Source of the DNA: an uncultured Muribaculaceae bacterium | GTDB taxonomy: Bacteria > Bacillota_I > Bacilli_A > RF39 > UBA660 | Assembly: GCA_964493665.1 (NCBI GenBank) | Contig: CAZBOZ010000001.1 | Coordinates: 24,591-88,590, forward strand | Direction: 5' to 3' | DNA: 64,000 bases | In this document: piece by piece, positions 14,460 through 63,079 of the stretch | Layout: every line of letters begins with the position of its first letter | Position numbering within the stretch: position 1 is the first letter of the stretch | Translations under genes and position numbers: made by a program | Notes under the pieces: generated by a model | What the model saw: the letters and a program-made list of their open reading frames with translations, nothing else | What the model was told of the DNA's origin: nothing | The model's database searches: none

Positions 14460-15290
14460 ATGATAAAAGTAGAGAATTTTACAAAAAAATATGGTGATTT
14501 TGTAGCTGTTGATAACATTAATTTTGCTATAAAAGAAAACGAAATAGTTGGTTTTGTGGGCAAAAATGGAGCTGGGAAAACAACTACTATTAGAGTCATT
14601 ATGAATATGCTGTTTCCAACATTTGGTAAAATTACTATAAATGGCTTAGATTCTATAAAAGATACTAAAAAAATTAAAGAATTTACTAGTTATATGCCTA
14701 GTGATATAGTATTTTACGAAAACTTAAAAGCAATTGATATATTTAAATTTTGTTTAAAATTTTCTCATAAGGATTTTAGTGAAGTAGAAAGACTAGCAAA
14801 ATATTTTGAGCTGGATTTAAATAAAAAAATATATGAATTAAGTACAGGTAATAAAAAGAAAGTAGCTATAATTGAGGCATTACTTAAAGAAAATGAAGTT
14901 ATTATATTAGATGAACCAACTAATGGCCTAGATCCTCTAATGCAAAAAAAGTTTTTTGATTTAATTTTAAAAGAAAAAGCAAAGGGAATAACAATCTTTT
15001 TATCAAGTCATAATTTAGGTGAAATAGAAAAGTATTGTGACCGAGTAATAATGATTAAAGATGGTAAGATAGTTGAAACTATTGATCTAAATAAAAAAAA
15101 TAACAAAATAAAATATATAGTTTCGTATGAAGATAAAAACAAGAACAAAGCTAAATACGAATATGAAGGTGACATTCAAACGCTTATCAAAAAACTAGGA
15201 GAATTAAATTTAAAAGATTTGGAGATAAGAAAAAAAACAATCGAAGAGGAGTTTATTTCTTATTACGAAAGCGGTGAAGATAATGAATAG
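14460..15290 (+). CDS. ABC transporter ATP-binding protein
   Basis: Walker A GKNGAGKTT, signature LSTGNKKK and Walker B ILDEPT. Confidence 0.85.
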   Translation: MIKVENFTKKYGDFVAVDNINFAIKENEIVGFVGKNGAGKTTTIRVIMNMLFPTFGKITINGLDSIKDTKKIKEFTSYMPSDIVFYENLKAIDIFKFCLKFSHKDFSEVERLAKYFELDLNKKIYELSTGNKKKVAIIEALLKENEVIILDEPTNGLDPLMQKKFFDLILKEKAKGITIFLSSHNLGEIEKYCDRVIMIKDGKIVETIDLNKKNNKIKYIVSYEDKNKNKAKYEYEGDIQTLIKKLGELNLKDLEIRKKTIEEEFISYYESGEDNE

Positions 15291-16095
15291 AATGAGTGGT
15301 AGAAACATTTTAAATGCTACTAAATTTAATTTAAAAGTTAATAAAAGTAGTATATTAGGCTGGAGTATTGCTATTTTTTCAATAATGTTTGTTTATATGA
15401 CCCTTTTTCCCATAATTAAGGATATTGGTATGGCCAAAATGGAGTTAATGCCCGAGGCTATGTTAGAGTTTGTAGGATTAAATAGTATTAGTGATATGAA
15501 TAATTTTATAAGTTATTTTGGGATGATTTTTAATATTATATTAATTGCCATATCAATATTTTCAGCGACATTTAGTGCAAAAATTATATGTAAAGAGGAA
15601 CATACTAAATCAATTGAATTTTTAGATGCTTTAAATATAAGTAGAGATGAAATATATGTTTCTAAATTATTAACAGCTTTTATTTCTGTAACGCTAGTAC
15701 TTATAAGTGCAATGTCAGCAACTTTAATAAGTGGCTTTATAAACGGCGGATCAACGTTTGTATTAACAGATTTTATAAAAATAATAAAAGTAAGTAGCAT
15801 GTCAGCATATGTTTTTATGGCTTTGTCATTTTTAATATCAGGAATTACTTCTAAAATCAATGTTTCATCTATATCAGCAATTGGCGTATTGGTACTTTAT
15901 ATGATTGGGTACTTAGGAATTTTAGTAGATAAAAAAATATTAACATATTTTAGTCCATTTGAGAGCTTAAGTCCTACTAAAGCCTTAATCTTATCAAATC
16001 ATACTATTTTAATGCTTTTAATATATTTGATGGTAATAATAATATTTATTGTCATCGGAAATAAATTCTATAAAAAAAGAGATTTTAATATTTAG
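15274..16095 (+). CDS. ABC-2 family permease
   Basis: Overlaps the ATPase gene. It is about 270 aa with six predicted TM helices. Confidence 0.65.
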   Translation: MKIMNRMSGRNILNATKFNLKVNKSSILGWSIAIFSIMFVYMTLFPIIKDIGMAKMELMPEAMLEFVGLNSISDMNNFISYFGMIFNIILIAISIFSATFSAKIICKEEHTKSIEFLDALNISRDEIYVSKLLTAFISVTLVLISAMSATLISGFINGGSTFVLTDFIKIIKVSSMSAYVFMALSFLISGITSKINVSSISAIGVLVLYMIGYLGILVDKKILTYFSPFESLSPTKALILSNHTILMLLIYLMVIIIFIVIGNKFYKKRDFNI

Positions 16096-17690: not shown

Positions 17691-17754
17691 TTTGCATTTT
17701 CTAAAAAAGGTGTTAAAATAATAAACAAAATAAATTTATTTGGGGGTGTGTCAT

Positions 17755-18465
17755 ATGGGGAATCATGATTCTATGCCAAAAAGGCCAATGTCTACTATAA
17801 CAGGAATTGGCAGAAAAGCACAAAAGGATGAAAATTCTGCTAGAGTAGCAGCAGCTCGTGCAAATTCAGCTTTTAAAGAAAAAACTTCTGAATTAAAGCA
17901 AACACAATCTGAAATAACAGCCAATATGCTTGAAGAGGGAGTTGTTAAACCAGAATTTTATCAGGCCGTTAATGAAATTATGTGCTCTTACAACAATCGT
18001 TTGTGGGAAGACTTGGTTGAGGGAATGTTGAATTTTTCGATAACCAACAAAGATGTCGTGTTTTTAGATGCTCATGGCTTAAAAAGAGAGGCCTTAAGAA
18101 TTTTATTTTATGTTTGTTGTGCTGAAGATATTGATGTTTTCTATACAACACTTTTCATGTTTAAAAATGGCTTCTTTACTATCGAGGAGATTTTCTTTAA
18201 TTTAAATTTAAGTAATCCGGTTTCGTTTTATAATCCTAATATTAATGTTGAGGGATTAACGGCCGGAGATAGAAGCAAACTTGCTAAAATACCAGAAGAA
18301 ATTAAAATTAAACCAATTGAGGAATTAAAAGCCTATGTTGAAGATAGGTTTGATAAATTAAAGAAAAAAGTTAAAAAAGATTTTAATAAAAGAATAAGCC
18401 CTAGCATATATACAGAATCAGACCAAGAAAGAAAATTATATAGGGTTCCAAAAACTGAAGATTAA
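17755..18465 (+). CDS. hypothetical protein
   Basis: An ORF with a GGGGGTG RBS before the ATG at 17755. The ORF track starts it at an upstream TTG. No recognisable family. Confidence 0.45.
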   Translation: MGNHDSMPKRPMSTITGIGRKAQKDENSARVAAARANSAFKEKTSELKQTQSEITANMLEEGVVKPEFYQAVNEIMCSYNNRLWEDLVEGMLNFSITNKDVVFLDAHGLKREALRILFYVCCAEDIDVFYTTLFMFKNGFFTIEEIFFNLNLSNPVSFYNPNINVEGLTAGDRSKLAKIPEEIKIKPIEELKAYVEDRFDKLKKKVKKDFNKRISPSIYTESDQERKLYRVPKTED

Positions 18466-18550
18466 TAATAAAAAGCAACTATTTTATAGTTGTTTTTTAT
18501 ATACAAAATGACACTTATATCATATAATTATTTTAGAATAGGAGGGTAAA

Positions 18551-19153: not shown

Positions 19154-19174
19154 AAAATTGAATAGGAGATTTAT

Positions 19175-19933
19175 ATGAAAAAATTGATTAATTTTAATTT
19201 AACGATGGGGGTTATTCATTTTATACAAGGAGTTACAATGCTTATTTTAGCTCTTACAGTAAGTAAAATAATGGATTTTAAACCAATAATATATACATCT
19301 TTTTTAAAATTTGATTATACTTCTATGAGCCTAGTAACAAATTTTAAAGAAGTCTTTGCTTTGCCATTTGCTTTACTAGTAAGCTGCTTTTTATTTTTAT
19401 CAGCCTTATTTCATTTTATGATAATTGTTTTTCATAAAAAATATGCAGAAGATTTGAATAAAAATATAAATAAGTTTAGATGGTATGAATATGCATTATC
19501 TTCTTCATTAATGATAGTTTTAATAGCAGTATTATTTGGGGTTTATGATTTAGGAGCTCTAATATTAATATTTGCGTTAAATGCCACCATGAATTTATTT
19601 GGCTTGCTAATGGAAAAAATGAATCAAGGTAAATCAAAACCCGATTGGACTCCATTTTTGTTTGGATCGTTTGCTGGCATTATTCCTTGGGTAGTAATTA
19701 TTATGTTTGCCTTTGGGAATTCTGATCCTTCATCAGTCCCATGGTTTGTCTATGCTATTTTTGGCTCATACTTTATCTTTTTCAACTTATTTCCAATCAA
19801 TATGATTTTACAATATAAAAAGATAGGTAAGTGGAAAGATTATCTTTACGGAGAAAAATGGTACATCATATTAAGTCTATCAGCTAAAACGGTATTGGCT
19901 TGGTTAGTCTTTTTTGGAGTAATGCAACCATAA
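19175..19933 (+). CDS. heliorhodopsin-like 7-TM retinal protein
   Basis: 252 aa with 7 predicted TM helices and a Lys in helix 7 (LSLSAKTVLAW). Blocks LSALFHF, FRWYEYALSSSLMIVLIA, FGSFAGIIPW and QYKKIGKW match my recollection of heliorhodopsin family motifs. Confidence 0.7.
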   Translation: MKKLINFNLTMGVIHFIQGVTMLILALTVSKIMDFKPIIYTSFLKFDYTSMSLVTNFKEVFALPFALLVSCFLFLSALFHFMIIVFHKKYAEDLNKNINKFRWYEYALSSSLMIVLIAVLFGVYDLGALILIFALNATMNLFGLLMEKMNQGKSKPDWTPFLFGSFAGIIPWVVIIMFAFGNSDPSSVPWFVYAIFGSYFIFFNLFPINMILQYKKIGKWKDYLYGEKWYIILSLSAKTVLAWLVFFGVMQP

Positions 19934-19958
19934 AGTCAGTTTAAACTGACTTTTTAAA
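19932..19958 (+). terminator. rho-independent terminator
   Basis: Perfect palindrome aaagtcagtttaaactgacttt plus a T-run, overlapping the stop of the rhodopsin gene. Confidence 0.6.
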
Positions 19959-19986
19959 TTGTATCTTTTTTTAACTATGATATAAT
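19959..19986 (+). promoter_or_regulatory. promoter candidate TTGTAT-16-TGaTATAAT (extended -10)
   Basis: Lies upstream of the SDR gene RBS aggagtg. Confidence 0.45.
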
Positions 19987-20005
19987 TTAAAATAGGAGTG
20001 ATAAG

Positions 20006-27818: not shown

Positions 27819-30686
27819 ATGAAAGAAAAAAAGGGTTTTGCTTTAGTTGAATCTATTTTTATGATAGTGTTTCTTTCTGTGGCACTTCTTTTAGTATATA
27901 AAGCTTTTGCTTCTTCTTTTCAAGACGAAAGAAGAAGAATAAAATATGATAATACTACAAGTATTTATGAATTATATTTTATTAAACAATACTTTGAAGA
28001 AAATGGTATTTTAGATTATTTAACCACTGCTACTTTAACTGATGGGTATTTGGAAATAAATTGTTCTACAATAACCTCTAATAATAGTGAATATTGTGAT
28101 TTTTTAACATCATTTGATAGTTTTGATGTTAATAAAATATATATCACTAAATATGATATGGATGGAGTAGCATATGATAATTTAGATCCAACCACCATTG
28201 ATTATTTTAAAACTTTATCAGGCACGGATACAATTTCATATAGAATTATTGTTTGGTTTAATAATGACCAGTATGCTAGTATGAAATTAGGTGTTCCATA
28301 CCATAATTTACTTGTTTTATTAAATGGTGGTACTTGGACAGGGACTAATAGTCAAACTCTCATAGAAGGTGAAACAACAAATATTTTAAATCCTGTGAAA
28401 GATGGTTATATATTTTTAGGTTGGAGCATAAACGGAGCGGGCAGCAGTGTAGTTGATACTACTTTTACAATGGGGACTGAAGATACAATTATAGTTGCAA
28501 CCTGGATGGATTATTCGGTAATTTATACTTACACAGGAGATTATCAGACGTTTTCTATACCATTAACCGGCTATTATCAACTAGAAGTTTGGGGAGCCGA
28601 GGGAGGAAGTTACGATCCAACTCTAGGTCAACAAAAAGGAGCATATGCTAGTGGTTATATTAGTTTAAACAAAGATGATGTAATATATATTTATGTTGGA
28701 GGAGCAGGCACTACTAATGGGAATGGGACTACCATTCCTGGAGGGTTTAATGGTGGTGGCACTGCTTTGGGTTATAGTGATTCAAATAATGGTTCCGGGG
28801 GTGGAGCTACTGATATTAGATTAGATACTAGCTTGAACTCAAGAATATTAATAGCGGCCGGCGGTGGTGGCACAGTAGGACCAACAGTTGCTAGCGGAAA
28901 TTATGGGGGGTCTTTAATAGCAACAAATGCTGTTTGGACAGCAGGCAGTACATATACTGCTACAGGCGGAACACAAATTAGTGCTGGCGGTGGTACTGTA
29001 AGTGGAGCATTTGGTCAAGGAGCTAATGGTGGGACAACATATCGTGCTGGCGGTGGCGGTGGATATTATGGTGGTGGGGTTCATACATATACTGGTGCTG
29101 GGGGGTCCTCATTTATAAGTGGGTATGCTGGATCTAATGCTATAACAAGTTCATCATCTACTACGGCCACAAACAATACAATTCATTATAGTAATAATTA
29201 TTTTATCAATGGTTCTATGGCAACTAGTGTAAATTCTGGAAATGGCTATGCCAAAATAACGTTTATTGGAGAAGAAGCTCCAACTAGAATAAACACTAAT
29301 TTAAATAATGTAAGATACATAAAAGATTGCGTAAACGGTAATACTACTGATACTACAGCTTCTTGGGTGGAGTTACAAGCAATATATCAAGGGATAAATG
29401 TTGCCAAAGGCAAAACTGTAACAGGAACATCAGCTCAGAATGCTAGTTATCCTTATACAAGAATAGTGGATGGCGATATAACGCCAGCTAATTTTGCTAT
29501 TTCATCAGTAAACGGTGCACAATGTGTGACGGTAGATCTTGGGCAAACATATAATTTAGATGAAGTAGCTGTATGGCATTATTGGCTAGATGGCAGAACT
29601 GTATATAGCAATGTAACGTCAGTATCAAATGACAATTCTAGCTGGTCTACAGCAATCAGTTCTTTATATGCTGAAAATAGTCAAGGCAAAAGAATAAATG
29701 CTTATCAAAATGATTATCCATATACAGGGGCAGTTCAAACATTTACAGTGCCATATACTGGCAATTATAAAATTGAATTATGGGGAGCCAGTGGTGGTAA
29801 TGGTAGTGCAACATACACTGGCGGTATGGGCGGCTATACAAAAGGTGAAATATATTTAACAAAAGATACCGATTTATATATATATGTTGGTGGGGTTGGG
29901 CCAGCAGTAGGAACTGCAACGAACACAGCTGGTGGATATAACGGTGGTGGTAATTGCTACTCTTATGCAGCAAATTATGTTACAGGATGTGGTGGCGGAG
30001 CAACAGATATTAGAACTACATCAGGTGTATGGAACAATTCCACATCACTTGCTTCAAGAATCATGGTAGCTGGTGGTGGTGGTGGTGGCCATTATCGTTC
30101 TGATACTTCAAGCAAAGGTGGCCAAGGTGGTGGGTTAACCGGAAATATATCTTATGGCGAAACCTCGGCTTATGGCAAACTATATCCAACTGGCGGATCT
30201 CAAACTGCTGGTGGTGCAAAAGGCTATGTAGACGCTTCTTCAAGGATAACTTCTTTAACAGATTCTGGATTTGGCTATGGTGGTTCAGTTAATGCCTCCG
30301 CATTAACATGGAACCTTATAGGTGGCGGAAGTGGCTATTGGGGTGGTGGAGCCGGAGTATTTATGGCTGGATCTGCGGGTTCGTCATATATTAGTGGCCA
30401 TACGGGTTGTATAGCAATAACTTCATCATCAAGCACATCGCCAAGAACAGGAACAGCAGGGGCACCATGTTCACAAGGCGGAACAGATAATTTATGTAGC
30501 ATTCATTATAGTGGCAATTATTTTACGAACACTTTAATGATAGATGGTGCTGACTACACTTGGACAAATATTAAAGCCTCTAAAGTTGGAACAAATGCTA
30601 TGCCACGACCAAATGGAGGCAGTTATCAGCCTGGATATGGTAACACTGGTAATGGTTATGCCAAAATAACTTATATTGGTAACTAA
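27819..30686 (+). CDS. giant prepilin-type modular surface protein (pilin-like N-terminus, Listeria-Bacteroides repeat, 2 Gly-rich modules, discoidin-like domain)
   Basis: KKGFALVESIFMIVFLSV is a class III signal peptide with the G-F-x-x-x-E motif. DGYIFLGWSINGAG...TIIVATW is a flg_new-like repeat. Two paralogous modules of about 250-320 aa run from YTGxxQTF..WGAxGG to GNGYAKIT(F/Y)IG. VDLGQTYNLDEVAVWHYW is F5/8 type C-like. Confidence 0.6.
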   Translation: MKEKKGFALVESIFMIVFLSVALLLVYKAFASSFQDERRRIKYDNTTSIYELYFIKQYFEENGILDYLTTATLTDGYLEINCSTITSNNSEYCDFLTSFDSFDVNKIYITKYDMDGVAYDNLDPTTIDYFKTLSGTDTISYRIIVWFNNDQYASMKLGVPYHNLLVLLNGGTWTGTNSQTLIEGETTNILNPVKDGYIFLGWSINGAGSSVVDTTFTMGTEDTIIVATWMDYSVIYTYTGDYQTFSIPLTGYYQLEVWGAEGGSYDPTLGQQKGAYASGYISLNKDDVIYIYVGGAGTTNGNGTTIPGGFNGGGTALGYSDSNNGSGGGATDIRLDTSLNSRILIAAGGGGTVGPTVASGNYGGSLIATNAVWTAGSTYTATGGTQISAGGGTVSGAFGQGANGGTTYRAGGGGGYYGGGVHTYTGAGGSSFISGYAGSNAITSSSSTTATNNTIHYSNNYFINGSMATSVNSGNGYAKITFIGEEAPTRINTNLNNVRYIKDCVNGNTTDTTASWVELQAIYQGINVAKGKTVTGTSAQNASYPYTRIVDGDITPANFAISSVNGAQCVTVDLGQTYNLDEVAVWHYWLDGRTVYSNVTSVSNDNSSWSTAISSLYAENSQGKRINAYQNDYPYTGAVQTFTVPYTGNYKIELWGASGGNGSATYTGGMGGYTKGEIYLTKDTDLYIYVGGVGPAVGTATNTAGGYNGGGNCYSYAANYVTGCGGGATDIRTTSGVWNNSTSLASRIMVAGGGGGGHYRSDTSSKGGQGGGLTGNISYGETSAYGKLYPTGGSQTAGGAKGYVDASSRITSLTDSGFGYGGSVNASALTWNLIGGGSGYWGGGAGVFMAGSAGSSYISGHTGCIAITSSSSTSPRTGTAGAPCSQGGTDNLCSIHYSGNYFTNTLMIDGADYTWTNIKASKVGTNAMPRPNGGSYQPGYGNTGNGYAKITYIGN
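28527..29276 (+). repeat. internal Gly-rich module copy 1 (intragenic duplication)
   Basis: Protein-level repeat from YTYTGDYQTFSIPLTGYYQLEVWGAEGG to GNGYAKITFIGEE. The terminal about 30 nt are also near-identical to copy 2 at the DNA level. Confidence 0.6.
29718..30686 (+). repeat. internal Gly-rich module copy 2
   Basis: Runs from YPYTGAVQTFTVPYTGNYKIELWGASGG to GNGYAKITYIGN, with the same order of Gly runs, DIR motif and NYF motif as copy 1. Confidence 0.6.
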
Positions 30687-37829: not shown

Positions 37830-38606
37830 ATGGATAGATTAGGCGAGTTATTACAAGAATTAGGAATATCCAAAGTTAGATTAGCTAAATATTTAGGCGT
37901 ATCTAGACAAATGGTTTATAATTATTTAGAAATGGATAGTATAAATAAATGGCCAAAAGAAAAGAAAATTTTATTTTTTAAGTTATTAAATATTGAAGAT
38001 GGTGATGACACCACTATTAAAGCAATAAAAGTAAATGCTGATTATTTAATGGAAGTAGAAAGTAGATTAAATCAAGGAGTAAAAGATCTATCTGATTTAG
38101 ATAACTATTTTGATTTTAATGGCCTTAAAAAAGAAGAACAAGAATTAATAGCTGATATTACATATTTATTAAAAGAAAAATTATTAGATGAGAAAAAAGG
38201 AGCTGAAAATTTTCAAGCCTTAACATATTTATATCATTTGTTGCAAGCGTATGAAAATGTTCCAGAAATTAAGTATATTTTTGGTTATATGTCAAAAGCT
38301 ACAGGATTTACTAATCCCAATACTTTTGCTTTTAATGAAGATAAACAATTTATATTTGAAGGAATATTATATTCAGCCTTAACCCTATACAATAGTGGGG
38401 GAACAAGCAAGAGTAAGTTAATTGATTCACATAAAAGATTTGTTCAAGAGATAGAACAAAGGAATGAAGAAAAACTAACCCGTACTCAACAATTAAGCAC
38501 TTTAAGAATTCAAGCTTTAAAAGAGCTTAATTATACTAAAATAGACGAATCTAATGCTGCCGAGATATTTGAAAAGATGGCAGAGATAGAGTCTAGGAAA
38601 GTATAA
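37830..38606 (+). CDS. XRE-type helix-turn-helix domain protein with a long C-terminal domain
   Basis: N-terminal ISKVRLAKYLGVSRQMVYNYL HTH. The C-terminal 200 aa are uncharacterised. Confidence 0.55.
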   Translation: MDRLGELLQELGISKVRLAKYLGVSRQMVYNYLEMDSINKWPKEKKILFFKLLNIEDGDDTTIKAIKVNADYLMEVESRLNQGVKDLSDLDNYFDFNGLKKEEQELIADITYLLKEKLLDEKKGAENFQALTYLYHLLQAYENVPEIKYIFGYMSKATGFTNPNTFAFNEDKQFIFEGILYSALTLYNSGGTSKSKLIDSHKRFVQEIEQRNEEKLTRTQQLSTLRIQALKELNYTKIDESNAAEIFEKMAEIESRKV

Positions 38607-38670
38607 TAAATAACAGCATATAATATATATTATGTTAACCAAAGTTAATTTAATGTAATAAAATATAAAG

Positions 38671-38710
38671 AAAAAAGAACTAAATAAATATAATAATTAT
38701 TAGTTCTTTT
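38671..38710. terminator. inverted repeat / bidirectional terminator candidate between convergent genes
   Basis: aaaagaactaa ... ttagttctttt 11-bp arms around a 16-nt AT loop. Confidence 0.35.
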
Positions 38711-38761
38711 TATATAACTTATTATAAAAATATAATGAAAATATTATTAAATAAAAATAAA

Positions 38762-39664
38762 TTAATTATCTAAATGACTATGTGGATGATATTCTTCATA
38801 GTCTTTTTTTAACTGTTCATTTACTAAATGAGCATATATTTGAGTAGTAGTTATATCACTATGACCAAGTAACTCTTGAATTATACGCAAATCTGCCCCA
38901 TTTTGAAGTAGGTGGGTAGCGAAAGTGTGTCTAATAATATGTGGCGATATATCTTTCTTAATACCTTTTTTAAGACATTCTAATTTAATAAATTTAAATA
39001 TTGATTGGCGACTTAAAGATTTTCCATAACGATTTATAAAAATAAATTCCGTATTTTTGTCTTTTAAAATAATTGGTCTATATTTATATATATATTCTTC
39101 TAAATGTTTTTTAGCTTCATCAGTAATAGGTATAATTCTTTCTTTGCTCCCCTTCCCCATAACTCTAACTAGGTCTTCTTTAAAATCAATATTATTTATT
39201 TTAAGGTTAACTAATTCACTAATTCTAATACCTGTAGCATATAAAAGCTCTAAAATAGCTTTATTACGATAATCATAAGGATTTTTACATTCAATATCTA
39301 ATAATTTAGTTATTTCTTCAATAGTTAAATAAACTGGTAATAATTTATCTTTTTTGGGCATTTTAAGACTTATACAAGGACTTTTTGCTAGTAATCCATC
39401 GCTTACTAGAAAATTATAAAAACTCTTTAATACAGTTATTTTATGAGTAATAGATGTTACTTTAATATTTTTAGTTTCTTTTTGGATATAATTTTTAATA
39501 TTATCAGTAGTAATATCTAATATATTTTGGTTTTTAAAATACATTTGAAATAACTTTAATTCATACATATAACTATCTATAGTATTATTTGAATACTTAC
39601 ATTCATATTTCAAATAATCTAAATATTTTAATATTAAAGGATCATAATTAAATGTTTTCTTCAT
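38762..39664 (-). CDS. tyrosine recombinase, XerC/XerD family
   Basis: C-terminal catalytic box HIIRHTFATHLL...LGHSDITTTQIYAHL with R..H..R..Y. 300 aa with an N-terminal SAM-like core-binding domain. Confidence 0.8.
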   Translation of the reverse strand: MKKTFNYDPLILKYLDYLKYECKYSNNTIDSYMYELKLFQMYFKNQNILDITTDNIKNYIQKETKNIKVTSITHKITVLKSFYNFLVSDGLLAKSPCISLKMPKKDKLLPVYLTIEEITKLLDIECKNPYDYRNKAILELLYATGIRISELVNLKINNIDFKEDLVRVMGKGSKERIIPITDEAKKHLEEYIYKYRPIILKDKNTEFIFINRYGKSLSRQSIFKFIKLECLKKGIKKDISPHIIRHTFATHLLQNGADLRIIQELLGHSDITTTQIYAHLVNEQLKKDYEEYHPHSHLDN

Positions 39665-39773
39665 ATTTATCTACTCCATTTATATTATACCATTTTATTT
39701 ATAAAAAATAAACGAACATTTATTTGCCATCTTGTTTTTATATGTTATAATAATTATGGATGTGATAATAATT

Positions 39774-40970
39774 ATGGAATTACTAGCTAATATATTAAAA
39801 CCAACTAAATTAAAAGATGTTATAGGCCAAGAACATTTAATAGGTCCTAATAAAATACTTAGTACTTTAATTAAAGAAAATAAGATGTTTTCCATTATTT
39901 TATATGGTAAACCTGGCATAGGTAAAACTAGTATAGCAAATGCTATAGTAAATGAATTAAATAAACCATATCGATTTTTAAATGCTGTAATTAATAATAA
40001 ACAAGATTTTGATATTGTCATAGAAGAAGCTAAAATGGAAGGTGAAATGTTACTTGTTATAGATGAATTACATCGTATGAATAAAGATAAACAAGATTTA
40101 CTCCTACCCTATATTGAAAATGGTTTAATTATTTTAATTGGATTAACTACTGCTAATCCATATCATAAAATAAATCCTGCAATTAGAAGTAGATGTCAAA
40201 TATTTGAATTACATGAATTAACTACTCTTGATATTAAAAAAGGTCTTAAAAAGGCTTTAAAAAGCCTTAAAGAAGTTAAAATAGATGAAGATTCACTCAA
40301 CTTTATTACCATTAGTTCTTCAGGAGACTTTAGAAGTGCTTTAAACTTACTTGAAATGGCTTATTATGCTAGTAAAGATCATAACATTAATATTACTTTA
40401 TTAGAAAGTATTCATGCTAAAAAAGTGTTTTATCATGATAAAGATCAAGATGGTCATTATGATGTCTTAAGTGCTTTTCAAAAATCAATTAGAGGTAGTG
40501 ATGTTGATGCTTCTCTACACTATTTAGCAAGACTTATTGAAGCCGAAGATTTAGACAGTATTTATAGAAGAATGACAGCATGTGCCTATGAAGACATAGG
40601 CCTTGCAAATCCTGGTATGGGGCCTAAAGTAATGGCTGCTATAGAGGCATCTGAATTATTAGGGCTTCCTGAAGCTAGGCTTCCTTTAGCAGTAGTAGTT
40701 ACTGAACTTGCTTTATCTCCTAAAAGTAATAGTGCTTATTTAGGTATAGATAAAGCTCAAAGTGATATTAGAAAAGGTAGTACAGGAAATGTTCCAGATC
40801 ATTTAAAAAATCCTAGTTCTACCTATAAATATCCTCATGATTATCCAAAATATTATATCAAACAACAATACTTACCAGATTTAATTAAAGACCATAAATA
40901 TTATCAAGCTAAGAATAATAAATATGAAGAAAACCTAGTAAAAATAAATAATGAAATGAAAAAAGACTAA
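39774..40970 (+). CDS. rarA: replication-associated recombination protein A (RarA/MgsA AAA+ ATPase)
   Basis: Start moved to the internal ATG MELLANILKPTKLKDVIGQEHL. Walker A GKPGIGKTS, Walker B LLVIDELHR, and the MgsA C-terminal helical domain. Confidence 0.85.
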   Translation: MELLANILKPTKLKDVIGQEHLIGPNKILSTLIKENKMFSIILYGKPGIGKTSIANAIVNELNKPYRFLNAVINNKQDFDIVIEEAKMEGEMLLVIDELHRMNKDKQDLLLPYIENGLIILIGLTTANPYHKINPAIRSRCQIFELHELTTLDIKKGLKKALKSLKEVKIDEDSLNFITISSSGDFRSALNLLEMAYYASKDHNINITLLESIHAKKVFYHDKDQDGHYDVLSAFQKSIRGSDVDASLHYLARLIEAEDLDSIYRRMTACAYEDIGLANPGMGPKVMAAIEASELLGLPEARLPLAVVVTELALSPKSNSAYLGIDKAQSDIRKGSTGNVPDHLKNPSSTYKYPHDYPKYYIKQQYLPDLIKDHKYYQAKNNKYEENLVKINNEMKKD

Positions 40971-40997
40971 TTAATTATTAGTCTTTATTTTTTTTAA
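40961..40997 (+). terminator. rho-independent terminator
   Basis: agactaat taatt attagtct hairpin overlapping the rarA stop, followed by a run of about 10 T. Confidence 0.6.
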
Positions 40998-40999
40998 TA

Positions 41000-41200
41000 A
41001 AAAGTACCCAAAGGAGAGTATGTAGTGATAAAAACCCGTTCGCAAACAGGTGGGCATCACATTAACATCTTTAGGATTCTAACACACTTAATGGGCTAGC
41101 ATTCAACACGGATATTAAATTAGATTCCCAATAAAATCACTTAGTCGGTTTTATATAAACACACCCTACCCTCAGGCATTTTAATTATACCATTTTTTAG
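41000..41200 (-). ncRNA. candidate structured small RNA (possibly 6S/SsrS-like), minus strand
   Basis: An intergenic island of about 200 nt that is clearly GC-richer than any other non-coding stretch in the window. On the minus strand, about 10-15 nt downstream of the aspS stop, there is an extended -10 TGGTATAAT. I know of no ORF there and saw no tRNA-like motifs. Confidence 0.3.
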
Positions 41201-41218
41201 GTTATAAAAAAAGATAAT

Positions 41219-42967
41219 TTACTTATTATCTTTTAATTTTATACCCAGTTCATCTAATTGTTTTAAATCTACTATATTAGGACATTCGTTCATCAAATCA
41301 GTAGCACTAGCTGTCTTTGGAAATGCAATAACATCTCGTATATTATCTGTTCCAGATAATAACATTACTAATCTGTCAAGGCCAAGAGCAATACCACCAT
41401 GAGGAGGAGTTCCATATTTAAACGCACTCATTAAGAAACCAAATTTTTGTTCTGCTTCCTCTTTTGTAAATCCTAAAGCTTCAAACATTTTACTTTGAGT
41501 TACAGCATCATGAATACGAATACTACCGCCACCAGCCTCATAACCATTTATAACTATGTCATAAGCTTTAGAATAACAGTTGCCTTTATCAGTAAGTAGT
41601 TTATCTATGTCTTCGTCTTTAGGAGCTGTAAATGGATGATGTGTAGCATAATATCTTTGATCTTCTTCACTATATTCAAAAGCCGGAAAATCTATAACCC
41701 ATAATAATTTATAACTAGATTCATCAATTAAATTTAAATTTTTACCTAGTTTCAGTCTTAAAGCTCCTAGGGCTGTTTTAACAGTTTTTTTAGCTCCACA
41801 TGTTATAAAGACAATATCATTATCATTAATATTTAAATTGTTTTTTAAAGTACCTAATTCATCTTTAGACATTGATTTAGCAATGTTACCAGTAATTTCT
41901 TCATTAAACTTAATATAAAATAAATTATTAGCACGATAAGTTTTAATTACTTCTTCTAATTTTTCGATATCTTTACGAGAAAATTTATCAGCACAGTTTT
42001 TACCAACTACGGCATTAATAATTCCGTTATTTTTTAAGGTATCTTTAAATATTGAAAAATCACTATTTTCAAATATTTCAGTAACATCATTTATTTTCAT
42101 GTCAAATCTTAAGTCTGGTTTATCAGATCCATATAAATTAATAGCATCATCATATTTCATTTTCATTAAAGGCAGATTAATATCAATATTTTTAGTTTTT
42201 TTAAATACATAAGCCACCATTTTCTCAGTAATATCCATAATATCATTTTCTTCAATAAAACTCATTTCGACATCTATTTGAGTAAATTCCGGTTGACGAT
42301 CAGCTCTTAAATCCTCATCTCTAAAGCATTTTGCTATTTGAAAATATCTTTCCATACCTGCAACCATTAACAATTGCTTAAATATTTGCGGAGATTGTGG
42401 TAAAGCATAAAAATTACCTTTGCTTACTCTACTTGGTACTAAATAGTCTCTTGCTCCTTCTGGAGTACTTCTGCCTAATATTGGAGTTTCTATTTCAATA
42501 AAATTCTCTTTATCAAAATATTCTCTTACTGCCATAGTTATTTTATGTCTTAATATTAATTTCTCTTTAATTATATTCCTTCTAATATCTAAATAGCGAT
42601 ATTTAAGTCTTAATTCTTCTGCTACATTAGAATCATTTGTTATTTCAAATGGCAATTCAGAAGCACTATTAATTAAGCTTAGCTCTTTTACATCAACTTC
42701 AATATCCCCAGTAGGCAAATTAGAATTTTTATTGCTTCTTTCCTTTATTTCCCCTACTACTTTTATAACATATTCATTTTTTAAAGTTAAAGCTAAATCA
42801 TAATTTTTATTACCTGGATTAATTATTAATTGGATTAAGCCACTTCGGTCTCTTAAATCTATAAATATTACGCCACCTAAATTTCTTTTTTTAGATACCC
42901 AACCATATAATTCTACTGTTTCACCAACATTTTTAATATTGTAGCTATTATTATTGTTTTTTTTCAT
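41219..42967 (-). CDS. aspS: aspartate--tRNA ligase
   Basis: OB-fold anticodon-binding N-terminus, class II motifs (FRDEDLRADRQPEFTQID, GGGSIRIH) and a GAD insertion domain. 582 aa. Confidence 0.9.
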   Translation of the reverse strand: MKKNNNNSYNIKNVGETVELYGWVSKKRNLGGVIFIDLRDRSGLIQLIINPGNKNYDLALTLKNEYVIKVVGEIKERSNKNSNLPTGDIEVDVKELSLINSASELPFEITNDSNVAEELRLKYRYLDIRRNIIKEKLILRHKITMAVREYFDKENFIEIETPILGRSTPEGARDYLVPSRVSKGNFYALPQSPQIFKQLLMVAGMERYFQIAKCFRDEDLRADRQPEFTQIDVEMSFIEENDIMDITEKMVAYVFKKTKNIDINLPLMKMKYDDAINLYGSDKPDLRFDMKINDVTEIFENSDFSIFKDTLKNNGIINAVVGKNCADKFSRKDIEKLEEVIKTYRANNLFYIKFNEEITGNIAKSMSKDELGTLKNNLNINDNDIVFITCGAKKTVKTALGALRLKLGKNLNLIDESSYKLLWVIDFPAFEYSEEDQRYYATHHPFTAPKDEDIDKLLTDKGNCYSKAYDIVINGYEAGGGSIRIHDAVTQSKMFEALGFTKEEAEQKFGFLMSAFKYGTPPHGGIALGLDRLVMLLSGTDNIRDVIAFPKTASATDLMNECPNIVDLKQLDELGIKLKDNK

Positions 42968-47520: not shown

Positions 47521-47545
47521 ATTAAAAAAAGCCATAAGGCTTTTA
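47521..47545 (-). terminator. rho-independent terminator after the RimK-like gene
   Basis: On the minus strand, a gtaaaagccttatggctttt hairpin then a U-run. A TATAAT for tgt follows. Confidence 0.5.
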
Positions 47546-48442
47546 CTTGTTTTCATTTATTTTGTCTCTTAAAAGAGTTAAAAATATATCTTCTTCGTAT
47601 GTTCCACGAGTCCTTTTTAATGATTTAAATCCGGGAACGGAATTAACTTCACAAATATAATAGCTATTATTTTCGCCAATTAAAATATCTATGCCACATA
47701 TATCTAATTTCATTGCTTTTGCTACTTTAATAGATAGTTCTTTTAATTCCGGAGTTGCTTCATAATATAAAGCTTCTCCTCCTTGAGCTAAATTACTTCT
47801 AAAATCTTTACCATTACTAGTTCTAATAGCACTACCAATAAATTTACCCCCTACTACATAGCATCTAATATCTTTACCATAGGATGATTTAATATATTCT
47901 TGGAATATTACTTTTCCTTTATAACGACTATATTTTAAATCAAATGTTTCTTTATTATCTATTAGAAAGACACTTTTACCTTCACGGCCTTTAATATATT
48001 TTAAAATAAATATAGGACTATTAAAAATTTTAGTAATATCTTCATATTCCAATAGTTGCTTGCCAGTTTTTCTTACTGAATATAAGGTCTTAGGACTTTT
48101 TATATTATATTCAGTTAATATTTGATGAGTTTTAAGTTTGTTTTTAGCATCTACCATTGCTTGAGAAGAATTAAATACTTTTACACCAAGGGTTTCTAGC
48201 TGTCTTATAAAAAATATATCTAATTTACGACTTATAGCGTATCTAGGAAATACCTTTATTTCTTTTCCTTCGTAATAGATGGTATTTTTATCACCTGTTG
48301 AAATAATAAATTTAGATAAATTATATACTTCTAAATCAATATCATAATGATTTTTGGCTTTAGTAATAAGCCTTTCAATAAAACCATTATTTATCTTACG
48401 ATTATAAGTCCAATTTGAATAAAAAAACCATACTTTTTCCAT
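47543..48442 (-). CDS. RimK-family ATP-grasp alpha-L-glutamate ligase-like protein
   Basis: ATP-grasp fold. DFRSNLAQGG matches the RimK DFRSN..GG motif. EVNSVPGF and a Lys-rich B-loop are present. Confidence 0.7.
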   Translation of the reverse strand: MEKVWFFYSNWTYNRKINNGFIERLITKAKNHYDIDLEVYNLSKFIISTGDKNTIYYEGKEIKVFPRYAISRKLDIFFIRQLETLGVKVFNSSQAMVDAKNKLKTHQILTEYNIKSPKTLYSVRKTGKQLLEYEDITKIFNSPIFILKYIKGREGKSVFLIDNKETFDLKYSRYKGKVIFQEYIKSSYGKDIRCYVVGGKFIGSAIRTSNGKDFRSNLAQGGEALYYEATPELKELSIKVAKAMKLDICGIDILIGENNSYYICEVNSVPGFKSLKRTRGTYEEDIFLTLLRDKINENK

Positions 48443-49303
48443 TTATTCTTCACCTAGTTCTTTTATTTTATTTCTTATACGACCATTTGGAAAAACAATT
48501 TTAGGACCCTTATTGGTGAACAAAACAATCATCATTTCATCATCTAATGCTTTTTTAATAGTCTTACTGTTGTTTTTCTGCCATATTCTTGACATTATCT
48601 TAGTCAAATCTTTAGTAGCTTTTTTTTCTACTTTTATTTCTCTTTTATCAAAATAGATAGCATCTAAAAGTAAATTCATAACCTTTTCTAATTCACCGGC
48701 TGTTAATCCTACTTTAATATTCCTAACTTCTATTAATTTTTTATTTAAATAATTAATTGCGGTATATTTAGCACTTACGTTTCTTTGAAATTCTAAATAT
48801 TCTTTAAAATCAAAATCATATACAACTTGTTTATAGACATTTTCTTCAAAATATTTTGGTTCTTCTTTCATTAATAAAAGTAATCTTTGATGAGAAGGAT
48901 CGGGATTGGTCATATCATATTGATTAAAATTCATATGAATACCACAATTATGACCTTTATCCATTAAAATACTGCCATCAGAGAAGTTCATTATTCTAAG
49001 TAGTGTACTATATATCTTCTTTATTTTTTTAACTGGTAATGGATCTAAAACTATTTCAAATGAATAGTTTCCAATAATAGTTCCATCACTAGTAAAATAG
49101 CCATTATCTCCTACAGCTTGTTTAATTTTTTTAAGTAAAGTTCTAATAAAAGTATATCTTTCTCTTTCATAATTAACTGATATTTCAATCTCTAAACCAA
49201 TTGAGTTAAAATCTACTGGCTTTTTAATTCTATCTATTCCATAAGATGGCTGAACATCAAGTAATTCATCATATCTTTTACTATAATTAATTTCTTCAAT
49301 CAT
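48443..49303 (-). CDS. hypothetical protein, candidate glutamine-synthetase-like amidoligase (Amidoligase_2/GCS2-like)
   Basis: 286 aa. SIGLEIEIS resembles the N-terminal G-x-E-x-E strand of GS-like carboxylate-amine ligases. It is otherwise unrecognised. The assignment is motif-level only. Confidence 0.4.
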   Translation of the reverse strand: MIEEINYSKRYDELLDVQPSYGIDRIKKPVDFNSIGLEIEISVNYERERYTFIRTLLKKIKQAVGDNGYFTSDGTIIGNYSFEIVLDPLPVKKIKKIYSTLLRIMNFSDGSILMDKGHNCGIHMNFNQYDMTNPDPSHQRLLLLMKEEPKYFEENVYKQVVYDFDFKEYLEFQRNVSAKYTAINYLNKKLIEVRNIKVGLTAGELEKVMNLLLDAIYFDKREIKVEKKATKDLTKIMSRIWQKNNSKTIKKALDDEMMIVLFTNKGPKIVFPNGRIRNKIKELGEE

Positions 49304-50978
49304 TGTTATATTCCCTTTCTATTACCCTAATTATTCTTTTCATTTTTTTAATTAATTTACTAAAATACCAAGCGTTATGATTTAATCTTCGATATTTTTT
49401 CCCTATTTCTAATTGTATAGTTGGTATACCTAACTCTTTATTAATATAATAACTAATTGTTTTAGTTCTTGCTAAAAACTTAGTATCAATAGTAACTTTT
49501 TTATTACCAACTTGTAATTTTTTTTGAATTTTATTAATTAAACTTATATTGCCATTTACATTTTGATAATTATTCACGCCAATTTCAAAATCGCGATCAT
49601 CATCATATTCTAAACCATGAATATCAATTAAAAATTTTATTTTATTTTCTAAAATAAATTTTTTTAATTCTTCTTTATAAATGTTGTTTTTAATATGATT
49701 ATAGTCCTCTCCATCATTATTAGTAAAAATGATGTTAGAATTAGTAGTTAAATGCAATACTTTAACTAAACTATTAGTATGATATTCTCTTACTTTATGT
49801 TTATCATTTCTTAAATGATAGTGAGCATGAGGAGCTGATAAAATAACATTATTGGTTCCTTTATATATTTCAAAATTAGCTATTTTCTTAGTTGATTTTA
49901 AATTATTAAATTCTTTTAATAATTCTAATGTTTTCTTTGGTTTATCTATAAACATAGCATCCCCGAAAGAAAAGAATCGATAATTATGTTTTTTGGCTTC
50001 TTTATAAGCATTTAATATATTATCTCTACCAGCTAAAGCACTAACTAGCATTAATAAAGTTGATTTTGGCAAGTGAAAATTAGTAATAAGTGAATCTATA
50101 GCTTTAAATTCATATCCAGGATATATAAATATATCAGTTTCACCAAAATCTTCTTTAAAAATATTATGTTTATTATAAGTTGCTTCAAGAACTCTTGTCG
50201 AAGTAGTACCAACTGCTATTATTTTACTATTTCTTTTTTTAGCATTATTTAATATTTCAGCGGTTTCTTTACTTAATTCATAATATTCACTATGCATTTT
50301 GTGATCTAAAATATTACTTTCTGAAACTGGTTTAAAAGTGCCAATCCCAACATGTAAGGTTATATAAGTAATTATGATGCCTTTTCTTTTTATTGATTCT
50401 AATAATTTTTTAGTAAAATGAAGCCCAGCAGTTGGTGCAGCAGCACTACCAAAATATTTGGCATATACGGTTTGATATCTATTATTATCTTCTAATTTTT
50501 CATGGATATAAGGTGGTGTTGGCATTTCACCTAAAGAATCTAATATTTCATATAAAATGCCTTCATATATTAATTCTATTTCAATTATGCCGTCTTCTTT
50601 TTTATTTAAAACTTTAGCTTTTAAAGCATTCTTTTTAAATATTATAATATCATTTATGTTAAGTCTTCTGGAATTTCTAATTAAAGCTTCCCACGTATTA
50701 TTTTTAATGTTTTTAAGTAATAATACTTCTACTTTAGCATCAGTTTTTTCTTTGACGCCATAAAGTCTGGCGGGGATTACTTTAGTATCATTTAATACTA
50801 AAACATCACCAGGATTTAAATAATTAATAATATTATAAAATCTAGTATGTTTAATTTTACCATTTTCTTTATTTAATACTAATAATTTAGAATGGGTTCT
50901 TTTTTCAATTGGAGTTTGAGCAATATATTTTTTATCTAAATTATAATTGTAATAATTAATGTCTAGGTGTTTTTCCAT
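49296..50978 (-). CDS. queA: S-adenosylmethionine:tRNA ribosyltransferase-isomerase QueA fused to a C-terminal FGase/AstE-AspA-like Zn-amidohydrolase-type domain
   Basis: The N-terminal 345 aa or so are collinear with QueA (PGDVLVLNDTKVIPARL, AAPTAGLHF, VGTTSTR, FHLPKSTLLMLVSA, YRFFSFGDAMFI). A further 215 aa or so follow in the same frame and contain ILSAPHAHYH and LIDIHGLEYDDD. Confidence 0.75.
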   Translation of the reverse strand: MEKHLDINYYNYNLDKKYIAQTPIEKRTHSKLLVLNKENGKIKHTRFYNIINYLNPGDVLVLNDTKVIPARLYGVKEKTDAKVEVLLLKNIKNNTWEALIRNSRRLNINDIIIFKKNALKAKVLNKKEDGIIEIELIYEGILYEILDSLGEMPTPPYIHEKLEDNNRYQTVYAKYFGSAAAPTAGLHFTKKLLESIKRKGIIITYITLHVGIGTFKPVSESNILDHKMHSEYYELSKETAEILNNAKKRNSKIIAVGTTSTRVLEATYNKHNIFKEDFGETDIFIYPGYEFKAIDSLITNFHLPKSTLLMLVSALAGRDNILNAYKEAKKHNYRFFSFGDAMFIDKPKKTLELLKEFNNLKSTKKIANFEIYKGTNNVILSAPHAHYHLRNDKHKVREYHTNSLVKVLHLTTNSNIIFTNNDGEDYNHIKNNIYKEELKKFILENKIKFLIDIHGLEYDDDRDFEIGVNNYQNVNGNISLINKIQKKLQVGNKKVTIDTKFLARTKTISYYINKELGIPTIQLEIGKKYRRLNHNAWYFSKLIKKMKRIIRVIEREYNND

Positions 50979-51906
50979 ATATTCTGCCCTTCTCTTCATC
51001 CATTAGATTACCTAAAAAATCTATTGATCCACCTAAAAACATTCTAGCTTTTTCTTCTTCTGACACTGGTCTTCTAAAAATCCCATTAACTTCAGCTTGA
51101 AAAGTTTGAATACCATAACTTGTTTGAATTCCAGCATATCTATATACTTGATTACACAATGCACGCTTTTTACTGGCTTGAAACTTAGTATTAAATTTTA
51201 AATTAATAATGCCATATGGTATATAACTACTTCTAGCGATGTTTTGAAAAGAAATATATTCTCTAATGTATTCTCCATGGTTAGTTCCAAAAGCTATATC
51301 AAAATCATTTTTATGGGCATCCTCAAAATGTTTTGCTCCATGTAAATCCATATGTAATAAAATATTATTATCTTTTAAAAACTTTATAAATTGCGGATTT
51401 TGATGATCAACTGCAGCATTGGCTTCTAAATTGTTGTTTCTAACATAAGCAAAACAATTTAAAACTTTAGCTAAATATAAAGCATAAGCGCCAGTATAAG
51501 GCTCATCCAATTTTTCTTCTTCATCAGCAGTCTTATAATAATAATAGGTTAAAACATGAGGATTTAAACCAAAGTCTTCAGCAATAAACTCAATTTTTTT
51601 CTTTTCGCCATTTATTAGGATTGCGTTAATATCTAAGTCTTCTGGGCTAGTTATTATCTCTTGAGTTATTATTTTATTTAATATGTCATCTTCATCTTTT
51701 TTAGCTAAGTCTATAGCTTTTATTATATCTCTAGTAGCCATAACTTTTTCAGTCGTTTTTACTGAATGAGGAGATGAAATTATAATAGGAATTTTTCCAA
51801 TTACCACTTTAAAACTTGGCTTATCATTATCTCCTGAATACCTATTTTTTTTAAAAGGTAATTCATCAAATCTTATTTCTTCAATTGAAACATTTGTAAG
51901 TGTCAT
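50956..51906 (-). CDS. FGase-like (N-formylglutamate amidohydrolase / AstE-AspA superfamily-like) hydrolase candidate
   Basis: 316 aa. IIISSPHS and LHMDLHGAKH resemble the HutG-type S-x-PH and D-x-H zinc-ligand blocks. It is a paralog of the C-terminal domain of the QueA fusion. Confidence 0.5.
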   Translation of the reverse strand: MTLTNVSIEEIRFDELPFKKNRYSGDNDKPSFKVVIGKIPIIISSPHSVKTTEKVMATRDIIKAIDLAKKDEDDILNKIITQEIITSPEDLDINAILINGEKKKIEFIAEDFGLNPHVLTYYYYKTADEEEKLDEPYTGAYALYLAKVLNCFAYVRNNNLEANAAVDHQNPQFIKFLKDNNILLHMDLHGAKHFEDAHKNDFDIAFGTNHGEYIREYISFQNIARSSYIPYGIINLKFNTKFQASKKRALCNQVYRYAGIQTSYGIQTFQAEVNGIFRRPVSEEEKARMFLGGSIDFLGNLMDEEKGRIYGKTPRH

Positions 51907-53634: not shown

Positions 53635-53961
53635 TTAATCTACATCCCAATTTGTGACTGGTAAATCATTAGAATCTTTAAATTCACCGGCTAAAATAAG
53701 TATCCAGTCGATTAGAGTTCCTATACCAAATAAACCAATAGTAAAGAGCCATAATATTCCAGTTCCAGTTTTACCTACATAGAATCTATGCACTCCTAAT
53801 GTACCTAAAAATGTACAAAGTAGAAATGTAACTAAACGAGATTTTGGTGATATTCCCTTCTTTGTTTTTAATTTTTCTATTGCTTTTCCGCAATTAAGGC
53901 AAACATCGGCCCCTTCTTTTAATTCTTTACCACAATTTGAACAAAACTTTATCATGAACAT
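53635..53961 (-). CDS. zinc-ribbon plus TM2-domain membrane protein
   Basis: CSNCG...CLNCG zinc ribbon followed by [27 protein letters not shown], a TM2 domain. Confidence 0.55.
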
Positions 53962-53968
53962 TCTCTCC

Positions 53969-62782: not shown

Positions 62783-63079
62783 TTATTTTTCCTCTTTCAT
62801 TGTTATATTTTTAGGATACTTAATCACTAATTCTTTTAATAAAAAAGTCATATTAGTAAGTAAAGTATCGGTTAAATTGTCTTTTTTTATGTTTGTTATA
62901 TGTATATAACCATCTTTTTCATCGTATTTAATGGCATCTTTATCAAGTCTTATAATAGCATTAATGGTTGTAATAACAATTCCACTAACACTAGCACAAA
63001 CTATGTCTTTACCACTTATATCATTATAAGCATGGCCAGATATAGTAATATCATTTGCTTTTACTATTACTTTTATCAT
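62783..63079 (-). CDS. prp: ribosomal-processing cysteine protease Prp
   Basis: [21 protein letters not shown] carries the catalytic His/Cys. It sits between rplU and rpmA. Confidence 0.8.

Follow-up and report, generated by a model that had tools for sequence, protein, structure and literature searches.

The window (the whole 64,000-nucleotide stretch of DNA analysed here) carries a gene that, as judged from its sequence, encodes a canonical heliorhodopsin (HeR) of a large Bacillota subfamily, and this gene forms a tight, lineage-restricted pair with the gene directly upstream of it, which codes for a small membrane protein that we term memb200. On the basis of synteny in one narrow lineage, memb200, and not the SDR oxidoreductase gene downstream, is the gene coupled to HeR. 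We have high confidence in the account as a whole, according to which a canonical Bacillota HeR would carry retinal on K238 and act as a sensor or regulator, would form a unit with memb200, and would owe its SDR neighbour to descent. Because the function of HeRs is still debated and seemingly depends on the partner, the memb200 linkage provides a hypothesis that can be tested cheaply. The features of the region are collected in Table 1.

Table 1 Features of the HeR region (positions are counted from the first nucleotide of the window)
Feature	Position	Strand	Basis and remarks
Terminator-like hairpin and U-run closing the upstream unit (orf241)	18468..18500	+	dG -12.7 kcal/mol, z -5.9, 0/200 shuffles equal; AT-rich
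Promoter-like site TATACA-17-TATAAT and RBS AGGAGGG before memb200	18500..18550	+	Best-scoring site on the + strand, 10/12 matches
memb200, 200 aa, three predicted TM helices	18551..19153	+	ORF; no Pfam/NCBIfam family; always directly upstream of HeR
memb200-HeR junction, 21 nt, RBS AGGAGA	19154..19174	+	No hairpin (dG -0.1, z +0.3), no promoter room
Heliorhodopsin (HeR) gene	19175..19933	+	ATG to TAA, 252 aa; PF18761, NF038020, PDB HeRs
Terminator-like palindromic hairpin and U-run right after the HeR stop codon	19932..19957	+	dG -9.5 kcal/mol, z -4.4, 0/200 shuffles equal
Promoter-like site TTTAAA-17-TATGAT and RBS AGGAGTG before the SDR gene	19953..20005	+	Promoter scan and sequence reading
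Classical SDR oxidoreductase, 262 aa	20006..20794	+	adh_short PF00106, 175.9 bits; TGAGSGIG at residues 11-18

Heliorhodopsin identity, chromophore site, and host range

The initial annotation had called the ORF a heliorhodopsin and proposed a Pfam Heliorhodopsin search and an alignment with the HeRs 48C12 and TaHeR as checks, both of which bore the call out. The translation matched PF18761 (Heliorhodopsin) over its full length with 325.1 bits (cut-off 26.7), residues 5–250 aligning with positions 2–242 of the 242 profile positions, and the E value of 3e-97 places this match far beyond chance. The NCBIfam equivalog NF038020 ("heliorhodopsin HeR") was matched with 306.8 bits against a cut-off of 100. 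PF18761 was the only family found in the Pfam scan of the ORF at E values up to 0.1, in which PF01036 (Bac_rhodopsin) was not matched. The solved structures matched in a full-length PDB search were heliorhodopsins only (1e-52 to 1e-61), with Cv06 (9VFC) as the best match (1.5e-61, 48% identity) and with TaHeR (6IS6) and 48C12 (6SU3) at 1e-57 and 9e-53, respectively.

Hydropathy blocks at approximately residues 9–35, 57–88, 105–146, 160–183, 188–212, and 230–250 correspond to seven helices, the block at 105–146 being composed of two helices with a tight GVYD turn between them. The N-terminus is basic (MKK) and K238 lies in helix 7 within the stretch LSLSAKTVLAW (residues 233–243), so that the length, helix number, basic N-terminus, and helix-7 lysine given initially all agree with the ORF. 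Lysine and arginine are distributed unevenly: the BC, DE, and FG loops together with the N-terminus contain 14 of them, and the AB, CD, and EF loops contain 2. By the positive-inside rule, a cytoplasmic N-terminus (N-in, inverted topology) is predicted, and the inverted topology with which the sequence had been considered compatible is thereby favoured.

Seventeen positions described as "highly conserved in all HeRs" (PMC7049168) were mapped via a HMMER alignment to 48C12, and 16 of them, plus K238, were identical. K238 aligns with the Schiff-base lysines K241 of 48C12 and K238 of TaHeR, and E105 in helix 3, the sole Glu counterion, aligns with E107 of 48C12. The Ser triad S76/S109/S234 (S76/S111/S237 in 48C12) and the His pair H15/H80 (H23/H80 in 48C12) are identical, as are N16, Y92, N101, R104, W105, Y108, E149, Q216, Y226, and E230 (48C12 numbering); N16, Y92, N101, R104, Y108, and E230 line the Schiff-base cavity along with the His pair. 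The single mismatch is at Q213 of 48C12, which is replaced by Met210 here and by Met in TaHeR as well. At the positions of the D85/D212 counterions of bR, this protein has Glu and Ser, as is typical of HeRs, and not the Asp pattern of type-1 rhodopsins. All listed chromophore-site positions, M210 and P207 included, were invariant when 84 related HeRs of the Bacillota type (56–100% identity) were aligned, and this invariance indicates purifying selection on chromophore binding.

The fenestration motif is complete (F161/S165/G168/F203/N204/P207) and, within the clade of these 84 relatives, invariant except at position S165. A preprint from 2025 defines the fenestration and carotenoid site by aromatic residues at 162 and 206, small residues at 166 and 210, Gly169, and Asn207. 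By these criteria, which are unreviewed and based on docking, the protein would be classed as carotenoid-binding. It does not have the profile of the proton-transporting viral HeRs of subfamily 2, given that the fenestration motif, which according to the preprint those HeRs lack, is present and that the gene, unlike theirs, is of neither viral nor eukaryotic origin but is surrounded by bacterial housekeeping genes. We consider it improbable that the protein mainly harvests light as a two-antenna, carotenoid-binding HeR or transports ions (protons, as in V2HeR3-like proteins) instead of acting as a sensor. The complete and largely invariant motif would fit such a function, as would the argument of the preprint that HeRs of this kind recruit exogenous xanthophylls, but the carotenoid idea derives from docking and motif counts, and ion transport has been shown for the viral subfamily only, which is devoid of the fenestration motif. 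The internal architecture is moreover of the 48C12/TaHeR type, for which we know of no report of transport.

Genes for retinal supply were searched for in 59 of the 67 listed window ORFs of at least 90 aa; the ORFs left out of this Pfam scan were mainly nested in or overlapping with longer genes, plus the ORF at 62783..63079, and eleven of the scanned ORFs were without any Pfam match. None of the 59 ORFs encoded a Blh protein, carotenoid oxygenase, phytoene synthase/desaturase, or lycopene cyclase, in agreement with the earlier observation that retinal and carotenoid synthesis genes are missing from the window. Since the window holds no such genes, retinal is probably taken up from outside, as far as can be judged from this stretch of the genome. 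The same finding would suit a non-photoactive relic in a dark-living anaerobe, which had lost retinal binding for want of chromophore, and the isolate names of several related MAGs hint at digesters or sediments as their origin; were the habitat dark, light sensing would be less easily defended as a role. Such a relic is nevertheless highly improbable, considering that 84 relatives, in which up to 44% of the other positions differ, have all kept the lysine, the counterion, and the complete set of pocket residues.

Homologs of the protein are numerous. A word-indexed search yielded more than 6,198 of them, named ones including "heliorhodopsin HeR [Lactococcus garvieae]" and proteins of Clostridia MAGs, and a protein identical to the HeR ORF is present in NCBI and Logan. 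Scanning of species-representative genomes revealed 320 HeR loci, the best of which (71–77% identity) are located on MAGs labelled Bacilli, Mollicutes, or (five contigs) Muribaculaceae, next in order being Izemoplasmatales, Acholeplasmataceae, Alkalibacterium, Proteiniclasticum, and many Clostridia. HeRs have been described in Firmicutes, strict anaerobes included, and have been reported as confined to monoderms (PMC8612252), and a function has been published for the HeR of Trichococcus flocculiformis, a member of the Bacillota (PMC9769723). The suggestion that the gene represents a new host context was thus not upheld, given both this literature and the abundance of the subfamily in low-GC Bacilli, Mollicutes-like, and Clostridia genomes.

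The window itself has a low GC content (24–29%) and a Bacillota-type housekeeping gene content, which includes DnaJ, RecD2/YrrC, AlaRS, MurC, the IreB-RuvX-DUF1292-YceG-O-methyltransferase-GreA genes, trigger factor, Lon, MutS, NusB, XseA, MnmA, AspRS, RelA, Tgt, QueA, RuvAB, Obg, HisRS, GatCAB, L21-L27, and a ComN-like regulator, along with 6S RNA and an L21 leader. The relative closest to the window by synteny bears the label Bacilli bacterium. The HeR is an unremarkable addition to a known family, within the known host range, and is matched by the NF038020 rule. Taken by itself it is of little weight, as its family already counts thousands of sequences, is represented by several crystal structures, and is annotated automatically by rule, and HeRs of this phylum are already known and partly characterised.

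The upstream membrane protein memb200 and its linkage to HeR

The arrangement of predicted signals (Table 1) suggests that memb200 and HeR are probably co-transcribed as a bicistronic unit bracketed by hairpins, and that the SDR gene is transcribed separately from HeR. Promoter and terminator calls were pattern- and energy-based; neither hairpin was picked up by a consensus terminator scan, owing to its requirement for three G-C pairs. The layout is matched in the syntenic relative L004 with differing hairpin sequences: HeR is followed there by a GC-richer terminator, GCCAAAGA-TAA-TCTTTGGC-TTTTT, and an extended -10 site, TGTTATAAT, is found at the equivalent place before the SDR gene. Further upstream, an ABC-2 transporter (14460-16095) lies 3 kb from HeR, with MurC and orf241 between them and the terminator-like hairpin after orf241.

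The upstream gene had been noticed initially as coding for a membrane protein with an acidic linker, and the ORF of memb200 confirms this description. No Pfam or NCBIfam family was assigned to the protein, and hits below threshold (FtsK_4TM, PFF1_TM, SpoIIIAH, and others) were regarded as noise. Close relatives are rare, amounting to 10 proteins in 5.8 billion (34–46% identity, 193–219 aa). In the alignment of this family, the N-terminal helix is near-invariant (MKRTLKNILMIL...), the S/T/E-rich acidic linker is variable, helix 2 contains a conserved intramembrane glutamate (E146), and the loop that leads from helix 2 to helix 3 is almost invariant (YLAYSKFNKxxFKExF). An AlphaFold2 model with a mean pLDDT of 53 has helices at residues 2–28, 117–163, and 174–199 (pLDDT ~65–78) and a disordered linker (pLDDT <50). 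The alignment indicates that TM1, TM2, and the cytoplasmic loop are under selection. In matched genome pairs, memb200 is 31–76% identical versus 75–96% for HeR and thus diverges about three times faster.

Because its N-terminus and loop are basic, memb200 is predicted to be oriented N-in, with the linker and the C-terminus outside, and its cytoplasmic part would consist of a single loop of ~18 residues. HAMP, methyl-accepting, or other signalling domains were found neither with Pfam and NCBIfam nor in the AlphaFold2 model. A profile search of 1.84 billion representatives (225 hits, E up to 1e-3) showed that memb200 is a short variant within a larger family that has no name, in which CotH kinase or right-handed beta-helix domains frequently come after the three-TM module. 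These domains are usually extracytoplasmic, which fits the predicted C-out topology.

In all 11 lineages examined (the window, L004, and nine other members of the memb200 family, leaving out P0124 on a contig of 979 bp), memb200 lies directly upstream of HeR on the same strand at a distance of 15–72 nt. HeR is a complete ORF of 252 aa in nine of these lineages and is cut by the contig end in the other two, where it is 72–75% identical to the query. Genes on either side of the pair have been inserted or replaced among lineages, the downstream gene being the SDR, a DEAD helicase, or another. Members of the short memb200 subfamily without HeR were not seen among the 11 lineages examined. Outside of them, HeR was found within 4 kb in 0/47 metagenome loci of the wider memb200-like family, by which a general HeR linkage of that family is ruled out, and the memb200 HMM detected no member beside the other 79 HeR loci. 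For L001, L003, and L008, the acidic TM proteins encoded upstream of HeR were considered as divergent forms of memb200 and rejected, as they are signal-anchored globular proteins without a memb200 HMM hit.

A neighbour-joining tree placed the memb200-linked HeRs in one low-GC clade, which also holds HeRs in other contexts without memb200 (L001, L002, L003, L005, and L008). Those of L001, L003, L005, and L008 are 71–77% identical, and their existence demonstrates that HeR can occur without memb200. All memb200-HeR pairs belong to one narrow low-GC lineage and share a MurC ... SDR-IreB-RuvX backbone, and their adjacency could for this reason be inherited rather than functional. There is somewhat less than an even chance that HeR acts alone or with an unlinked partner and that memb200, a free-standing version of a common Bacillota membrane-anchor module, has remained next to it by vertical inheritance. 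The common chromosomal backbone and the memb200-free relatives agree with this explanation, as do the wider family, in which the three-TM module serves as an anchor for CotH or beta-helix domains at loci without a neighbouring HeR, and the great overall variability of HeR neighbourhoods. It accounts less well for the short spacing maintained in 11 lineages despite turnover of the flanking genes, for the position of both genes between hairpins with no promoter space between them, and for the constant company of HeR in the short subfamily. With these observations in mind, we tentatively regard memb200 as the most likely lineage-specific partner or accessory subunit of HeR.

The SDR gene and other HeR neighbours

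That an SDR oxidoreductase gene lies downstream of HeR, as the initial annotation stated, is correct, but the adjacency looks like backbone synteny and the neighbour class is already listed. In a published survey (PMC11109279), SDR family oxidoreductases figure among ten classes of genes that recur beside HeR in operons. The gene follows HeR directly in the window, L004, and L138 and belongs to a conserved SDR-IreB-RuvX-DUF1292-YceG backbone. In L082, L084, and L088, a DEAD-box helicase gene takes its place after HeR; in L082 and L084, the helicase is followed by an ABC-F gene and the SDR gene stays with IreB-RuvX-DUF1292-YceG. Of 80 related loci, only 9 have an SDR-like gene at a distance of up to 10 kb from HeR, by our own estimate about as many as expected for so common a family. 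The protein scored below every specific NCBIfam equivalog cut-off, and its PDB matches are generic SDRs, so that its identification as a specific retinol dehydrogenase is a weak lead at most. Given the intervening helicase and ABC-F genes in relatives, the frequency in 80 loci, and the generic matches, the adjacency is probably mostly a matter of chromosomal descent.

A residual functional link between the SDR and HeR is possible, because an unrelated SDR gene directly follows HeR in L013 and because L005 has an orthologue (50% identity) 1.8 kb from HeR in the absence of the backbone genes. The best full-length PDB matches of the SDR include HSD17B13 and DHRS4, for which retinoid activity has been reported. 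These points, together with the listing as a recurrent neighbour class and the direct adjacency of the genes in three loci, would agree with an SDR that is the functional partner, either as an enzyme regulated by HeR, in the way published for glutamine synthetase, photolyase, and ABC transporters, or as an oxidoreductase acting on retinol/retinal to provide or regenerate the chromophore. We regard this as unlikely in view of the terminator-like hairpin and the separate promoter-like site and RBS that stand between HeR and the SDR gene in both the window and L004, in addition to the variable gene order and generic matches described above. The SDR adjacency should accordingly not be over-read.

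When ORFs located up to 5 kb from HeR were clustered for 80 loci, no dominant neighbour emerged, which excludes a universal operon partner of HeR across Bacillota. Recurrent neighbours were an OYE-type flavin oxidoreductase, LigT, M20 peptidase, ADP-ribosylglycohydrolase, photolyase, DUF2177, a DNA-alkylation repair protein, and SDRs.

Putative mechanism and comparison with known systems

By homology, all-trans-retinal would be attached to K238 of HeR through a protonated Schiff base, for which E105 would serve as the counterion; S76, S109, and S234 would stabilise E105, and a water-filled cavity formed by H15/H80/N99/R102/E227 would lie behind it. Light would isomerise the retinal, as in known HeRs, and the Schiff-base proton would move to the E105/H15/H80 hydrogen-bond network and stay within the protein. 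A long-lived intermediate could then alter the cytoplasmic surface and thereby modulate a bound partner, and by analogy HeR would function as a slow-cycling light sensor or regulator and not as an ion pump. This scheme draws on previous work on HeRs (PMC7049168, PMC9726877, PMC9529153, PMC9769723, PMC11109279). The best candidate for the partner in this lineage is memb200, or else it may be an unlinked target or the SDR. We cautiously suggest, well aware that it is doubtful, that memb200 is an undescribed lineage-specific accessory subunit or transducer, in which E146 and the SKFNKxxFKE loop would contact HeR and the linker would couple its light state to the cell surface.

The protein shares the Schiff-base lysine, Glu counterion, Ser triad, His pair, gate Arg, and cavity residues with 48C12 and TaHeR, the founding HeRs with solved structures. 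It differs in the length and sequence of the AB loop, has Pro207 where both of them have Ala, and carries Thr239 in place of Ser242, Leu244 in place of Gln247, and, at the dimer interface, Phe178 in place of Tyr179. With Cv06 from Chromera velia (9VFC; preprint 10.1101/2025.11.27.691015), it has five fenestration positions in common (F/G/F/N/P), and the sixth is Ser here and Cys in Cv06. Cv06 is a eukaryotic protein of 317 aa, whose N-terminal extension and several loop insertions are absent here.

A photoreceptor beside a membrane protein with few TM helices, with a possible TM-TM interface, is likewise found in the type-1 sensory rhodopsin II/HtrII system. HeR, however, is from a different rhodopsin family and has the opposite topology to sensory rhodopsin II, and memb200, having no HAMP or methyl-accepting domain and only a short cytoplasmic loop, does not qualify as an Htr-like transducer. 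TfHeR of Trichococcus flocculiformis, which helps photolyase (PMC9769723), is from the same phylum, Bacillota, and is compared here by phylum and gene context. Photolyase is a recurrent neighbour of related HeRs (L054), and no photolyase gene was found by Pfam among the 59 scanned ORFs of the window.

Glutamine synthetase is the partner of AbHeR (PMC9529153), and the ABC exporter OmrDE is that of OcHeR (PMC11109279). In these systems, HeR shares an operon with a protein that it binds and modulates, which is the idea considered here for memb200. Unlike those partners, memb200 is a membrane protein of 200 aa with no enzymatic domain and falls outside the ten published neighbour classes (PMC11109279). 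If the proposed role of memb200 is true, HeR would for the first time have a partner that is neither an enzyme nor a transporter but a small membrane protein dedicated to it.

Membrane protein and ORF upstream of the heliorhodopsin gene

The 200-aa three-TM membrane protein encoded directly upstream of the heliorhodopsin (HeR) gene, memb200, is a member of a wider family (P0133–P0279; loci L091–L137) that has neither a Pfam nor an NCBIfam model. The three-TM module of this family opens with an MKRxIKNIIMI helix, which is separated by a low-complexity, PPEKP-rich linker from a second helix carrying an embedded Glu, followed by an SKFNKxxLKETF loop and the third helix. On low-GC gut- and rumen-type contigs, fusions of the module with a CotH kinase or right-handed beta-helix domain are frequent. 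Further upstream, orf241 yielded no match in a search for its protein family, and homologues with 31–39% identity recur near the memb200–HeR cassette in the syntenic relative L004 and in the compared loci L086 and L089.

Other features of the window

The GC skew changes from positive to negative at ~39–41 kb (window 38000–42000), the same place at which gene orientation changes from the plus to the minus strand, and cumulative skew has its maximum at ~40 kb. This pattern looks like a replication terminus.

Features located in the window
Feature	Position	Strand	Remarks
Alanyl-tRNA synthetase ORF, 591 aa	10435–12210	+	Class-II core model and SAD domain
orf241	17740–18465	+	Upstream of memb200–HeR unit; TTG start uncertain
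955-aa protein with ALK/LTK glycine-rich domain	27819–30686	+	PF12810, 285 bits
XerC/D-type tyrosine recombinase	38762–39664	-	At skew/orientation switch
MgsA/RarA ATPase	39732–40970	+	At skew/orientation switch
6S RNA	41001–41181	-	60 bits; at skew/orientation switch
RimK-like ATP-grasp ligase (298 aa) and 285-aa ORF	47543–49303	-	Between Tgt and QueA
QueA ORF, 566 aa	49296–50999	-	Queuosine_synth domain, residues 14–350 only
315-aa ORF	50956–51906	-	Upstream of QueA ORF and overlapped by it
TM2-domain protein and small pilin-motif protein	53635–54361	-	Between Obg and RuvA

Alanyl-tRNA synthetases usually have a length of ~870 aa. As the ORF of the window has only 591 aa and aligns to the class-II core model at positions 2–433 of 552, with its SAD domain at the extreme C-terminus (residues 544–586), the usual C-terminal region appears to be missing from the predicted protein; the following gene sits on the opposite strand. 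In QueA, the ~215-aa tail beyond the Queuosine_synth domain is without an assigned domain, and the 315-aa ORF had no family match. The 285-aa ORF lies directly upstream of the RimK-like ligase gene and had no match in Pfam; the two could be a peptide-ligase pair. The TM2-domain protein carries an N-terminal zinc ribbon, and its small neighbour has a type-IV-pilin N-terminal methylation motif.

The 955-aa protein additionally contains a Listeria-Bacteroides repeat, and its gene lies in a region of 33–37% GC, compared with ~26% elsewhere in the window. PF12810 takes its name from the ALK/LTK receptors of animals, and such a strong match in a bacterium therefore looks unusual.

Heliorhodopsin contigs labelled Muribaculaceae

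Five HeR-bearing contigs (L001, L002, L005, L011 and L043) have the record title "uncultured Muribaculaceae bacterium". Muribaculaceae belong to the Bacteroidota, which are diderms. The G+C content of L001 and L005 is 26–28%, and L005 and L011 encode a short-chain dehydrogenase/reductase 50–67% identical to the one downstream of HeR in the window. The taxonomy given for these third-party MAGs is probably incorrect. This point matters because HeRs have been reported to be absent from diderms (PMC8612252).
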